A DNA stretch of 41,125 nucleotides from a virus. The first letter of the stretch is position 1. The number at the start of each line of letters is the position of its first letter. The stretch is from the IMG/VR virus record IMGVR_UViG_3300045970_001152; one strand, given 5' to 3'. Positions 29,706 to 37,944 of the stretch are shown here, in pieces. Position numbers and translations under genes: made by a program. A model generated the notes under the pieces. The model did no database searches, had not been told where the DNA came from, and was given only the letters and a program-made list of their open reading frames with translations.

Positions 29706-30773
29706 CTACTCGATGTCGATGACGCGGCCGAACTGGCCCGCACGCACCGACCGAATGCCAGCCTGCTTCGCAGTCTCATCCACCGCCAGTTCGGACATCG
29801 CGGCAAGGAGACTGCGAACCTCGTCCGTGGAGTGATTCACCTGCTCCGCGGTGAGCTGCCAGTCGGTCTCTCCATTCCCGCCCTGCTTCAAGAACCGGGC
29901 GCGGATGGACTTAATCGTGTCCTCGAAGGTTGAGGTCCCCGAGAAGTTGACCGCCGAGAAGGTCTCGAAGGCCTCGAAGAGAGGCCGGAGGTTCTTGGGG
30001 TTCAGCTTGCCGTTGGTCTCGAGCAACCTCTTGGCCTGCGAGGCTGCCTCTCCGAGCTGCTGATGCATCATGACGGAGACTTCGCTCACCCAGTGGTTGA
30101 GGTCCCGTCGCACCCTGTTCTGCTCAGCGAGCAGCGTCTCAGCATCCAGGGTGGACATCGACTCCACGCCCTCGAGCGGCGTCATCTTGAACATGCGCCA
30201 CTCGAAGTTGTAGCGGCTGCGCAGGTGCGAGACGTCCGGGTACAGGGTGCGGTTGATGGCCTCCTGCTGCTTCACCCAGATGTCGAGCTCCTTCACCTTC
30301 GCTGCGTACGCGTAGGGGGCGACCTTGTTGGCCTCCTTCTCCGCGATGTTGCGTGCCTGCTGGGTGAGCTTCTCGAGCTGCTCCTCCTTGAAGCGAGGGT
30401 AGCCCGCGATGAGGTCGTCCACGGCGACATCCCACTGCGCCTTGAACTCCTGGAGTCTCCGCAGTACCTCGCGCAGCGCGTGGTAGGAGACGTACTTCGC
30501 ATTCCCGATTGGGAACGGGACGGAGCGGTTGTCGAGGAACCTCCGCGCATGCCCCTCGATGAACTGGAGACGCTCTTGTGCCTGACGCGGCAGGAGCTTC
30601 TTGTGCCCGATGTAGAAGGCACTCTTGTCGACCTCGTCGATGAGGAGGTCGCTCTCGTTCATCTTCTTGTTCGCGGTCCAGCGACCGATGTAGAGATGAA
30701 ACAGCGTACCGGTATCAAAGAGAACGCGGGTGATGCCGCTCTCCTGCCGGACGGACACAGGAGGGTTGGGCAC
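29706..30773 (-). CDS. Hypothetical 355-aa protein ending in ...GRVIDIE. Last gene of the AAA-ATPase module.
   Basis: Long ORF with good codon usage. Its C-terminal 7 residues and 21 nt are shared with gene 36730..37944. Confidence 0.6.
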   Translation of the reverse strand: MPNPPVSVRQESGITRVLFDTGTLFHLYIGRWTANKKMNESDLLIDEVDKSAFYIGHKKLLPRQAQERLQFIEGHARRFLDNRSVPFPIGNAKYVSYHALREVLRRLQEFKAQWDVAVDDLIAGYPRFKEEQLEKLTQQARNIAEKEANKVAPYAYAAKVKELDIWVKQQEAINRTLYPDVSHLRSRYNFEWRMFKMTPLEGVESMSTLDAETLLAEQNRVRRDLNHWVSEVSVMMHQQLGEAASQAKRLLETNGKLNPKNLRPLFEAFETFSAVNFSGTSTFEDTIKSIRARFLKQGGNGETDWQLTAEQVNHSTDEVRSLLAAMSELAVDETAKQAGIRSVRAGQFGRVIDIE

Positions 30774-30774
30774 C

Positions 30775-30978
30775 CTACCCCCCGGTGTGCGAGTGGTCGT
30801 GCGACTCGATCTTCTGGCTGCCCTCGGGCTTCATGTCGCGCTTCTCCACCTTGCCGAGAGCGTCCTCGAGGGACTTGGTCTCCGCGAGGCAGGCGTTGCC
30901 CACGAAGCCGCGGGTCGGCTCGGCCTTGACCGTTCCGTCCTTGGCGATGGTGACCTTGATCTCCTTCAACGTTGCCAT
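30775..30978 (-). CDS. Small protein resembling the DUF2997 family (IKVTIAKDGTVKAEPTRGFVGNACLAETKSLEDALGKV).
   Basis: 67 aa. AAGGAGGAAGC directly upstream of the ATG. Family assignment is from memory and needs an HMM check. Confidence 0.55.
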   Translation of the reverse strand: MATLKEIKVTIAKDGTVKAEPTRGFVGNACLAETKSLEDALGKVEKRDMKPEGSQKIESHDHSHTGG

Positions 30979-30987
30979 GCTTCCTCC

Positions 30988-31542
30988 TTACAGCGTGATC
31001 ACTCGGCCATGCCGAATGCGGGTGTCGTTGCGCTGCGCTGCCTGAACGTCTTCGTCGGAAGCCAGGCGCCGGCGCGGGCCGGTCTGCGCGGGGGCTCCGG
31101 CGTCCATCTTCTCGAGCTCCTCACCGGCGCGGAAGCGCCGCATGATCCCGGCCACCTCGCTCTGGATGAGGTCGAGGTGCTTGCAGTGCCGGGGCTTGGG
31201 CAGCCCGGTCTCCTTGTCCTTGCGCTGGAAGACCCAACCCATGCAGTTGCAGCGCAGGGTTCCGTCTTCCTCGAGGCGCGTCTCGTAGTTCACGATGAAG
31301 CCGCCCCTGGGCTGGCTCGATGCAAAGGCCCAGGTGTAGACCGGCTCCCCGTACTCTCTCTTGGCAGGGTCGCTGTTGGTGGTGTCCCTGCCAGTCCTGA
31401 CACTGCGGCGTGGCATGTTGATCTTCCTCCTCTGGCGTGAGGGGAGAGGAGCCGGCACCTCCTCTTCGAAGGGCCGGACCCTCTCCTCGTAGAGCCGGTG
31501 CGAGAGGTCGGCGATCTGGTCGATCACTCGCCTTCTCGGCAT
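30988..31542 (-). CDS. SWIM zinc-finger protein (CNCMGWVFQRKDKETGLPKPRHCKH).
   Basis: 184 aa with the CxCxnCxH motif. Basic N-terminus. Ends ...GRVITL. Confidence 0.55.
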   Translation of the reverse strand: MPRRRVIDQIADLSHRLYEERVRPFEEEVPAPLPSRQRRKINMPRRSVRTGRDTTNSDPAKREYGEPVYTWAFASSQPRGGFIVNYETRLEEDGTLRCNCMGWVFQRKDKETGLPKPRHCKHLDLIQSEVAGIMRRFRAGEELEKMDAGAPAQTGPRRRLASDEDVQAAQRNDTRIRHGRVITL

Positions 31543-36229: not shown

Positions 36230-36304
36230 GGTTGGGATGTAACAGAAGAGCCCGACAGAACCTTGCGGTCCCATCGGGCTCGATCTGCCTGGTTGGGGAT
36301 TGGA

Positions 36305-36721
36305 CTACGGGGCCCTGACGCTCTTTGCCTTGGGATCCTGGAGGAGGCGACGCTGGTCCAAGATCGTGGAGGAGCTTCTGTAGTCGGGGCAGTTCTTGTC
36401 GTAGTTGCGGTTCAGGCACTTCGAGTGCTTGTCCCGGAACTTGTTGCGGACGGCGAGGTAGCGGCGACGGCTGCCGCTCTCGTCGTAGATAAGGAGCATC
36501 GACTCGCCACAGCTGTGGCAGACGAACTCGATGCGTCCCTCTCCGTCCCTCGCGTACTCGTCGTCATCCGTCAGGAAGTGCAGGTGGACCTGAGGGGCTC
36601 CAGCAAGGAACTCGACCTTGAACAACTGGCTTGCGTGACCGCAGCCAAAGACCTGCGCTCCCATGGGCACCCCCTGGCGTGGCTTCATTCTGAGGCCAGG
36701 AGGCACAACGTTGGAAGGCAT
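36305..36721 (-). CDS. Hypothetical protein with Cys/His clusters. Start uncertain.
   Basis: 138-aa ORF with several in-frame Met near the N-terminus. Confidence 0.45.
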   Translation of the reverse strand: MPSNVVPPGLRMKPRQGVPMGAQVFGCGHASQLFKVEFLAGAPQVHLHFLTDDDEYARDGEGRIEFVCHSCGESMLLIYDESGSRRRYLAVRNKFRDKHSKCLNRNYDKNCPDYRSSSTILDQRRLLQDPKAKSVRAP

Positions 36722-36729
36722 TCGTTCAC

Positions 36730-37944
36730 CTAGTCCTCGATGTCGATGATGCGGCCGGGTAGGAACCGCTTCTCGGGTGTGATGATCTCCTTCTGTGTGG
36801 GCTCCTGTGCGACAGCCTCTTCCGTGACTCGGAGGTCACGAATCAGCCCACGCTCAGGAAGCGCCGGATACATTCGACGAAGCGCCGTCTCGTCTGACCC
36901 CACTGCGAAGTCCATGGCGACGAAGTTGGCGGCCCGAGGGAGCTGGATGTTGGCCTCCACTCGGACCTCCCCCACGTTAGAGATGAGGCCTCGGTTGGCG
37001 ATGTCCTGTAGCGCCGCGCGGGCTTGAGTCTCCATGGCGGCCCGGGTCGTGGCGGAGTTCTGCTGACCAAGGAAGTCCTGCATGCTCTGAGCGACAGCGT
37101 CTCCAAGAGAAGGAGGAAGGGTTGGAGGCTCCTCCCCTGCGGCGGTGTACATCTCGTAGAAGATGTCGTTGTTGACGTTCATCGCTGCACGGAGGTTCCG
37201 CTGGCGAGCAGCCTCGGCTTCGCGGCCCCCGTCGAGCAGTCGTGTCTGCTGAGCTTCTTGCAAGAACTCTCTCGGCACCTGCATCGCATTCAGCATGGAC
37301 CGCCGACTGGCCTCCTGCTGCTCCCTCATTCGGGCTTCATCTGCGGGCGAGGCCGTCATGGGTCCGAAGATGTTCATCAGGAGCTGCGGGCCCCTACCGG
37401 TACGACGTCGCTGCTCTTCTTGTTCGATCGCGCGAGCCTGGTCCCAGATCTCGAGAGGCACAGGAAGGACTTCGGTCCGAACCCTCTTGCGGCGAGCGTA
37501 CTCGATGCAGTTGGCGGTCCCTCCCGTCGACCCGTTCCAGACGGCGAGGACGAGAGAGGCGTTGTCCACCATCCAGGCGTTGCGACGGTAGAGGAGGTTG
37601 GCGCGGTACTCGTGGGTGTCGGTGACGACGTGGACGCTGTCTGCCTCGTTGAGGAGACGCTGGTAGTGCCGCCTCGAGGCATCAGGCCAACGACTGTCCC
37701 ACCCATGGAAGGGCACGACAGCAGTCCACTTGATTCCCTCCTCGAGGCAGATCTCCGCCGCCCACTGGTCCACACCGAGCGCCATGCCGGTGAGGATCAT
37801 CAGCTCATCCCCCGCGGCGGTGGCCACATCATCCTGCGCGCGGAAGGCGGTCCGAAGCACCTCCCTCACGTTCAGGTAGATGGGGTTCGGAGTGTAGTAG
37901 CCTCCGAGTTTGGGGGGCCTATGACCAGAAACTGCCACAATCAT
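36730..37944 (-). CDS. SLOG-domain (YpsA/DUF1273-like) protein with a long C-terminal extension ending ...GRIIDIED.
   Basis: AAGGAG lies 10 nt upstream of the ATG. Start MIVAVSGHRPPKLGG, followed by MILTGMALGVDQWAAE. Together these are the TGHR/Rossmann signature of SLOG proteins. The Arg-rich N-extension to 38142 is rejected. Confidence 0.6.
   Translation of the reverse strand: MIVAVSGHRPPKLGGYYTPNPIYLNVREVLRTAFRAQDDVATAAGDELMILTGMALGVDQWAAEICLEEGIKWTAVVPFHGWDSRWPDASRRHYQRLLNEADSVHVVTDTHEYRANLLYRRNAWMVDNASLVLAVWNGSTGGTANCIEYARRKRVRTEVLPVPLEIWDQARAIEQEEQRRRTGRGPQLLMNIFGPMTASPADEARMREQQEASRRSMLNAMQVPREFLQEAQQTRLLDGGREAEAARQRNLRAAMNVNNDIFYEMYTAAGEEPPTLPPSLGDAVAQSMQDFLGQQNSATTRAAMETQARAALQDIANRGLISNVGEVRVEANIQLPRAANFVAMDFAVGSDETALRRMYPALPERGLIRDLRVTEEAVAQEPTQKEIITPEKRFLPGRIIDIED

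Follow-up and report, generated by a model that had tools for sequence, protein, structure and literature searches.

The viral DNA fragment IMGVR_UViG_3300045970_001152 (IMG/VR; the whole stretch of 41,125 nucleotides (nt) is referred to as the window) was found to encode a minus-strand gene module (positions 29,706 to 37,944) in which four otherwise unrelated proteins, i.e. a DUF3150 protein, a SWIM-like zinc-finger protein, a SLOG/YpsA-like protein and a Ycf46-family AAA+ ATPase, carry a similar short peptide at their C-termini. This tail is proposed to be a short linear docking motif with the core R-x-Φ-[D/E]-Φ (Φ, hydrophobic residue; positions +1 to +4 counted from the arginine) at or a few residues from the C-terminus. 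Its conservation pattern makes it very probable that the tail serves the proteins of the AAA+ module as a common, functional docking motif. The explanation favored on balance is that the motif joins the ATPase and its client proteins, with the products of the neighboring DUF1257 and DUF2997 genes as the most likely receptor; taken by itself, this assignment of the receptor is tentative and ranks slightly below an even chance. The tail-bearing proteins (lengths in amino acids, aa; ORF, open reading frame) and their tails are the following:

29706..30773, minus strand: DUF3150 protein, 355 aa (PF11348, E=1.8e-11, 44.3 bits versus a Pfam gathering cut-off of 24.9), putative tail-bearing client
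29709..29729, minus strand: DUF3150 tail GRVIDIE (ORF end QFGRVIDIE*)
30988..31542, minus strand: SWIM-like zinc-finger protein, 184 aa (CxC...CxH pattern, no Pfam match), putative tail-bearing client
30991..31008, minus strand: tail of the SWIM-like protein, GRVITL (ORF end RHGRVITL*)
32019..33614, minus strand: Ycf46-family, Cdc48-like AAA+ ATPase, 531 aa (PF00004, E=4.5e-30; phrog_8638, E=1e-127)
32022..32039, minus strand: tail of the AAA+ ATPase, GRRIDA (ORF end VAGRRIDA*)
36730..37944, minus strand: SLOG/YpsA-like protein, 404 aa (PF06908, E=4.4e-15, 56.5 bits versus a gathering cut-off of 27.7, residues 3-146)
36733..36756, minus strand: SLOG tail GRIIDIED (ORF end LPGRIIDIED*)

The tails GRVIDIE, GRIIDIED and GRVITL, which had been reported in the initial annotation, are all present at the respective ORF ends, and when all six frames of the window were searched for GR[VIL][IVL][DTE][ILV], the DUF3150, SWIM-like and SLOG tails and no further site were returned. 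The suspected tie to the adjacent AAA+ ATPase is strengthened by a tail that had been overlooked, namely that of the ATPase itself. The same annotation had described the peptide as a property of two unrelated proteins: these are indeed unrelated, but the number was too low, as the network comprises at least four families. In the SLOG protein, the SLOG domain of ~170 aa is followed by a long variable linker and then by the tail.

At the DNA level, the 21 nt underlying the tails of the DUF3150 protein (GGCCGCGTCATCGACATCGAG) and the SLOG protein (GGCCGCATCATCGACATCGAG) are identical at 20 of 21 positions. This figure, correctly given before, adds little: all seven tail codons are the preferred codon of the window for their residue (high G+C content at third codon positions), identical codons at the six shared residues have a chance of 0.036 given the peptide, and the 15-nt blocks flanking the motif agree between the two genes at 4-7 of 15 positions, i.e. 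at the random level. Given random flanks and a plain use of preferred codons, the shared signal resides at the peptide level and does not reflect a recent DNA duplication; the nucleotide identity is not independent evidence beyond the peptide. The proposal that the tails are a chance resemblance, or a functionless product of recent local duplication or gene conversion, finds its argument in the 20 identical nucleotides and is of negligible probability, as the tail is kept in hundreds of homologues from four families in phages and bacteria; recent duplication or gene conversion is ruled out by the random flanks and preferred codons together with this conservation.

The conservation was followed in related genomes drawn from IMG/VR, JGI metagenomes, Logan and NCBI (18 non-redundant), in which the tail marks the four families. 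Among the DUF3150 homologues that could be detected (36-94% identity), all 79 share the terminus [FY]-x-R-Φ-Φ-[DE]-Φ, followed by 0-3 residues, and their arginine is invariant; for the ATPase, approximately 100 of 120 homologues terminate in G-R-x-[VIL]-[EDQ]-[AV]. Among the SLOG representatives (clustered at 50% identity, n=150), the tail is present on 79 (75 in a looser scan), with the consensus [PFY]-[GK]-R-Φ-[IL]-D-[LI] and, behind it, 1-3 further residues, most of them acidic. Within the best 57, it occurs on nearly all proteins longer than 200 aa; short SLOG-only proteins do not have it. The SLOG linker varies widely in length (tail-bearing proteins of 229-404 aa) while the tail is kept. 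Lack of conservation in the homologues of either protein, which had been named as the outcome that would speak against a functional tail, was thus not observed. At the related loci, 54 of the 65 proteins assigned to the four families end in the strict motif, versus 7 of 2,928 other six-frame ORFs, and two of these seven (L005:6899-7606 and L027:6007-6402) look like lineage-specific extra clients. For the DUF3150 variants with unusual tails (P0027, P0045, P0053), the contigs end before the ATPase gene.

The arginine is invariant in all tails scored (79 DUF3150, 100 AAA+, 79 SLOG). Bulky hydrophobic residues occupy +1 and +4 of the client tails; in the ATPase tails, +1 is small or polar and +4 is alanine in 67 of 100 cases. 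Because between 0 and 7 residues are tolerated after the core, the signal does not include the free carboxylate. Taken together with the cellular homologues described below, the tail has two of the attributes expected of a short linear motif: it forms a conserved island in a variable, disordered region (as judged from sequence entropy, predicted local distance difference test (pLDDT) values and the variable SLOG linkers), and it recurs in unrelated families (DUF3150, AAA+, SLOG, SWIM-like, HHH_3, WGR).

The tails of different families from the same genome resemble each other: their identity at positions +2/+3 is 0.58 versus 0.34 when genomes are permuted within families (P = 5e-5). Locus L005 shares Val-Glu in five proteins (RVVEL, RIVEL, RIVEL, RIVEV, RVVES), the tails of L004 read RVMDV, RKMDI and RAIDA, and L045 (a Logan SRR32162512 contig of 195 kb) displays asparagine at +3 in all three of its tails (RMMNL, RKMNL, RSLNV). 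Such a joint drift of unrelated proteins is what a single shared pocket would predict. In sum, the conservation, the position behind a disordered linker, the spread over unrelated families and the co-variation within genomes lend support to the earlier suggestion that the peptide may be a targeting or docking signal.

For the ATPase, the closest sequences in the PDB are those of VAT and of the D2 domains of p97 and Cdc48; in the AlphaFold2 (AF2) model (mean pLDDT 90), ~550 columns align to D1-D2 of p97, Cdc48, Rix7 and NVL. Residues 1-232 are modeled as a degenerate alpha/beta D1-like tier, while D2 is predicted to be active; sequence searches of this N-tier versus PDB and Pfam gave no match. 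The conserved segment W-C-x-x-R-T-R-P-A-N (residues 503-512) is followed by a ~13-residue linker (513-525; entropy 2.6-3.7 bits, with gaps and length variation at 517-525) and then by the tail G526-R527-x-[VI]-[ED]-A, in which R527 has an entropy of 0.07 bits. The pLDDT falls below 50 over residues 520-523 and 525-531. Docking of the tail in cis was considered and rejected, as the AF2 monomer leaves it disordered; this has no bearing on binding in trans. The PF00004 core and the full-length homology to cyanobacterial AAA+ genes preceding DUF1257 place the protein in the Ycf46 family. As separate observations on its homologues, P0108 (809 aa) contains an extra PF14890 domain, presumably an intein, in a gene apparently invaded by a mobile element, and a contig of ENA sample ERZ1426827 carries an ATPase homologue split around an HNH gene.

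In reading order, the module comprises the SLOG/YpsA gene, several small ORFs, the gene of a protein here called 'FFWELL', the AAA+ gene, DUF1257, the SWIM-like gene, DUF2997 and DUF3150, and all four tail-bearing genes lie in this one minus-strand block. The members without tail that have been named are the following:

30775..30978, minus strand: DUF2997 protein, 67 aa (PF11211, E=4.8e-14), without tail, candidate receptor subunit
31547..31972, minus strand: DUF1257 (Ycf35-like) protein, 141 aa, without tail, candidate receptor
34780..35334, minus strand: 'FFWELL' small protein with a conserved ~110-aa domain and the C-terminal 'FFWELL' motif, without tail, no Pfam match

In the 18 non-redundant related genomes, the tail was never seen on DUF1257, DUF2997 or the 'FFWELL' protein. 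The SWIM-like gene occupies the same syntenic place, between DUF1257 and DUF2997, in 25 loci and bears the tail on every copy; DUF2997 was found in related phage loci as well as in many cellular loci, and the 'FFWELL' gene, with homologues in 19 other loci, is located upstream of the ATPase gene at related loci. The first residues of the DUF1257 protein are M(V)-S-H (31964-31972, minus strand), in agreement with nearly all homologues and plastid Ycf35 (PMC13060386). Such strict conservation points to a functional residue at the N-terminus once the methionine has been removed.

The distribution of the module outside the related genomes was followed in a cellular scan reduced to one genome per species, which yielded 80 loci with full-length ATPase homologues. 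The ATPase of the window is 38-44% identical over residues ~9-512 to the AAA+ proteins of Pseudanabaena, Microcystis, Richelia and others, each of which is followed by DUF1257; going by the source annotations of homologues, we take these cyanobacterial proteins to be Ycf46. All 23 cyanobacterial ATPases end in EYQR[ML]EF (or EYKR[ML]E[FW]) and have a DUF1257 gene with an MSH start directly downstream (for example L081, 5971-7524 and 7699-8049; L092; L121; and 20 others). The ATPases of Gastranaerophilales, Firmicutes, Verrucomicrobiota, Gallionellaceae and Dactylosporangium end in G-[GR]-R-x-L-[DE]-Φ, and their neighbors with the same tail are helix-hairpin-helix proteins (HHH_3, ComEA-like). 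In a metagenome-assembled genome from sheep rumen (L098:281-5323), a tandem series of seven paralogous ORFs (90-248 aa) is located upstream of the ATPase gene; each of them ends in ER[NEIK][ILV]D[FLI], in agreement with the GGRTLDF end of the ATPase. An HHH_3 domain is present in the two ORFs that were scanned, and the arrangement looks like a diversified client array. At L129, the tail-bearing neighbor is a WGR protein. As judged from their domains, the clients would thus be mostly nucleic-acid-binding (HHH_3, WGR, DprA-like SLOG, SWIM).

More distant phages exhibit comparable pairs of ends on the ATPase and a neighbor protein: SRAATLDL with SRASMLEL or SRASVLEL (L006/L007), GKRAGMSLDS with TRRAVKL in the Rhizobium phages RHph_I4 and L338C, and NRRAIRTQG with GRNRKLKL in Aeromonas phage HJ05. 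In the cultured Mycobacterium phage Catdawg (cluster O), the AAA ATPase gp97 (L049:3392-5170) ends in KVRVLDL; no convincing tail-bearing clients were found in this phage, which has a beta clamp of its own (gp80).

Across the 80 cellular loci, presence of the ATPase tail and of a DUF1257/DUF2997 gene at the locus are strongly associated (34/5/7/34; Fisher P = 1.3e-10), also when the cyanobacteria are collapsed to one lineage (12/5/7/34; P = 1.6e-4). Tail-less cellular ATPases stop a few residues past W...R-x-R, keep the N-tier and have no DUF neighbors. DUF1257/DUF2997 are favored as the receptor because the ATPase tail tracks their presence across the cellular loci. According to the proposed mechanism, all tails would fit one binding site and would thereby be forced to evolve together; DUF1257 (Ycf35) and DUF2997 would form the receptor pair, tail-free and always encoded beside the ATPase. 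The hexameric ATPase would be held on the DUF1257/DUF2997 platform by six tails, and the same or adjacent pockets would recruit the tail-tagged clients or be competed for by them, the ATPase tail representing a weak and the client tails a strong version of the motif. The ATPase may then remodel or load the clients, which in cells are mostly predicted to be DNA-binding.

Several observations weigh against this mechanism and its receptor. The DUF genes are present without a clear ATPase tail at seven cellular loci, and at five others the tail occurs with no DUF gene detected; in Catdawg, neither DUF1257 nor DUF2997 was found within 4 kb of the tail-bearing ATPase. The co-occurrence would also be expected if DUF1257/DUF2997 were further parts of a richer system with the pocket located on the ATPase. 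In both statistical tests (permutation and Fisher), kinship is taken into account solely by collapsing near-identical genomes and cyanobacteria, and the structural models are of monomers, in which there are no contacts with a partner.

The pocket could alternatively be part of the AAA+ ring itself, either in the degenerate D1-like N-tier or at a subunit interface. The client tails would then act as adaptor or substrate tags, in the way of MIM for the MIT domain of Vps4 or SHP/VIM for the N domain of p97, and the weaker tail of the ATPase would be an autoinhibitory or ring-bridging placeholder that is displaced by clients. The ATPase is indeed the sole universal tail-bearing component, its tail resembles a weaker client tail, and that of Catdawg keeps RVLDL without nearby DUF1257/DUF2997. 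In L045, the locus with asparagine at +3 in all tails, the ATPase has lost the conserved R43 and K52 of N-tier strand 43-52, and P0208 pairs an RKLNL tail with phenylalanine in place of R43; this support from R43/K52 is anecdotal, as P0105 has RAVNI yet retains both residues and position 43 is lysine or arginine in tail-less cellular homologues, too. Mutual information between tail and body (116 AAA+ homologues) is spread over the whole protein, corresponds to phylogenetic signal and is uninformative; the tail is disordered in the AF2 monomer (pLDDT <50), and its loss tracks the absence of DUF1257/DUF2997 though the N-tier is retained. A receptor on the AAA+ ring is therefore considered rather unlikely and ranks after DUF1257/DUF2997. 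The strand of the L045 ATPase, rewritten to KNAKHHHWILGVG, is a natural variant useful for receptor hypotheses.

Of the functions that had been suggested for the peptide at the outset, a degron for AAA+ machines and a cargo-loading signal for a protein compartment fit the data less well than docking to DUF1257/DUF2997. A degron or pore-entry tag would be read by the ATPase pore or a host protease and would mark its bearer for unfolding or degradation; exposed, disordered C-termini and a Cdc48/VAT-like unfoldase are in line with this. The ATPase, however, carries the tag itself, no protease family was detected among the module genes scanned (several of which had no match to any family), the invariant arginine and the concerted evolution fit a specific pocket rather than a pore, and a signal that tolerates 0-7 trailing residues does not have its free carboxylate read: a simple degron is thus very improbable. 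If anything slightly more improbable is docking onto a DNA-replication hub of host or phage, e.g. the sliding clamp, in the manner of clamp-binding motifs and the tails of T4 gp43/gp33/gp55. The nucleic-acid-binding clients (HhH, i.e. helix-hairpin-helix, WGR, SWIM, DprA-like SLOG), the loose likeness of the Φ-D-Φ core to the L-[SD]-L of QL[SD]LF, the beta clamp of Catdawg and the position of the RHph_I4 module beside DnaB and PolA would be compatible with such a hub; yet the invariant residue is arginine instead of glutamine, no terminal aromatic residue is present (the last core position being V/L/I or A, where the beta-clamp motif has Q at 1 and L-F or L-x-L at 4-5), and the tails co-vary per genome and track DUF1257/DUF2997 rather than a clamp gene.

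Lowest among the functional alternatives stands the vault: here the tails would direct all four proteins (ATPase, DUF3150, SLOG and SWIM-like) into an MVP shell or onto it. An MVP homologue of 879 aa (MVP_shoulder PF11978 and Vault_3) is encoded in the window at 11642-14281 (minus strand), 18 kb from the module, and in three related lineages an MVP gene is located within the module or adjacent to it (L005:14817-17396, between DUF2997 and DUF3150; L044:2-1360; L026:2-256), so that a lineage-specific vault link is possible. Elsewhere in the phage collection, MVP was found only in the uncultured huge-phage records LR756500, LR756501 and LR756503 (tblastn, E <= 1e-3). At the same threshold it was undetected in RHph_I4, L338C and HJ05, which carry the module with tail-like ends, and no MVP gene was present within ~6 kb at the 80 cellular loci, cyanobacterial, gut-bacterial and actinobacterial ones included (whole genomes were not searched). 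The shell gene was hence not found wherever the motif occurs, MVP being syntenic in some lineages only, and the MVP homologues themselves have no tail. In addition, known vault cargo uses the INT domain of ~160 aa rather than a short peptide. As a general explanation, the cargo-loading signal is unlikely, since the tail system occurs in isolated phages without detectable MVP and at cellular loci without MVP nearby.

Several major AAA+ machines are wired by shared terminal docking peptides, among them the proteasome activators, Vps4/ESCRT-III and the p97 cofactors. The closest parallel is provided by the HbYX/GQYL tails (PAN, Rpt, archaeal Cdc48; Mpa and Bpa of mycobacteria) and the HslU tail on HslV: there, too, an AAA+ unfoldase and unrelated non-ATPases share a C-terminal peptide, which resides on a flexible extension past the last AAA+ domain, as in the module, and docks into the pockets of a common oligomeric partner. 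In contrast, the motif described here is R-x-Φ-[D/E]-Φ instead of hydrophobic-Tyr-X at the extreme C-terminus, tyrosine not being recorded among the eight most frequent residues of any core position, and up to seven residues may follow it. Furthermore, the presumed partner is not a peptidase but the candidate pair DUF1257/DUF2997; no peptidase family of the 20S/HslV type or other was detected among the module genes scanned, several of which have no family match. Short, often C-terminal and disordered motifs recruit varied proteins to classic-clade AAA+ enzymes also in the MIT-MIM system (Vps4/ESCRT-III) and via SHP, VIM, VBM and PUB/PUL of p97/Cdc48; the present ATPase has neither an MIT nor a p97-N-type domain, its N-terminal 232 aa being modeled as a D1-like tier, it shares the motif with its clients, and the motif is neither Leu-rich nor helical in pattern. 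Unrelated DNA proteins likewise share a terminal peptide in the DNA-hub systems (beta-clamp QL[SD]LF; T4 gp45-binding gp43, gp33 and gp55; SSB-Ct), from which the tail differs by its invariant arginine, by the acidic residue between two hydrophobic ones and by its coupling to AAA+/DUF1257/DUF2997 instead of clamp or SSB.

The cyanobacterial/plastid ycf46-ycf35 pair agrees in the ~40% ATPase identity over ~500 residues, the DUF1257 gene next to it and the EYQR[ML]EF end; its tail is one residue shorter (R-Φ-E-Φ), and no tail-bearing client was seen within 6 kb. The phage version, compared with the cyanobacterial one, recruited DUF3150, SLOG and SWIM-like clients. The finding is accordingly viewed as a probable network of docking motifs within a so far uncharacterised AAA+ machine, which departs in defining features from the HbYX/GQYL and HslU tails, MIT-MIM recognition and the clamp-binding tails. 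Ycf35 is functionally uncharacterised and noted for its MSH N-terminus (PMC13060386), a DUF2997-ycf35-fed7 cluster is on record (PMC4284462), and viral YpsA-like SLOG domains have been proposed to counter cyclic ADP-ribose (cADPR)-type signalling (PMC9503650). The literature searched contained no description of the shared C-terminal motif and mentioned DUF1257, DUF2997 and DUF3150 only in passing.

In consequence, DUF3150, the tail-bearing phage SLOG subfamily and the SWIM-like protein may be considered candidate parts of a single complex, clients can be predicted genome by genome by the rule of a C-terminal R-x-Φ-[D/E]-Φ in agreement with the tail of the local ATPase, and the obscure cyanobacterial Ycf46-like/Ycf35 pair is now open to probing via its six-residue tail. 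More speculatively, and with somewhat greater reserve than for the receptor, one may envisage an ancient, previously unrecognised class of AAA+ machine in which a Ycf46-type double-tier ATPase, docked through its tails onto DUF1257/DUF2997, processes mostly DNA-binding, tail-tagged clients. It would be conserved in cyanobacteria, gut bacteria, large phages and possibly plastids. If true, phages would have plugged in clients of their own (DUF3150, SLOG, SWIM-like), and one group would possibly have coupled an MVP shell.

With respect to the genomic context, a protein 100% identical to the ATPase of the window is encoded on a 198-kb metagenomic contig, so that the element looks like a large phage. 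A nucleotide search of the module versus phage records gave no match, and no tRNA genes were found in the window. PADLOC and NCBIfam returned for the module generic AAA matches below the cut-offs and a weak ShosA/SLOG match only; a known defence system was thus not recognised by either.

The start codon of the SLOG gene is overlapped by 4 nt (ATGA) by a gene of 238 aa with weak HNH and HTH matches (37941-38657, minus strand). At the opposite end of the module (29124-29705), an endolysin gene (GH108 and PG_binding_3; plus strand) converges on the DUF3150 gene, and the 42-nt gap between the two harbors a perfect GC hairpin (GGGGGCCC-GCAA-GGGCCCCC) that is probably a bidirectional terminator. A second SWIM zinc-finger protein (PF04434; 27570-28109, plus strand) is encoded outside the module and has no tail. 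HATPase_c_3 (rIIA-like) and Phage_T4_rIIB proteins are inserted between DUF2997 and DUF3150 in L044 (6627-9787), and the same pair is located directly upstream of DUF3150 in L047 (3-2191) and L048 (2-1931). The window also encodes a Cpn10/GroES homologue (PF00166; 22475-22900, plus strand), which is conserved in the related large-phage loci L014, L015, L043 and L044 as well.

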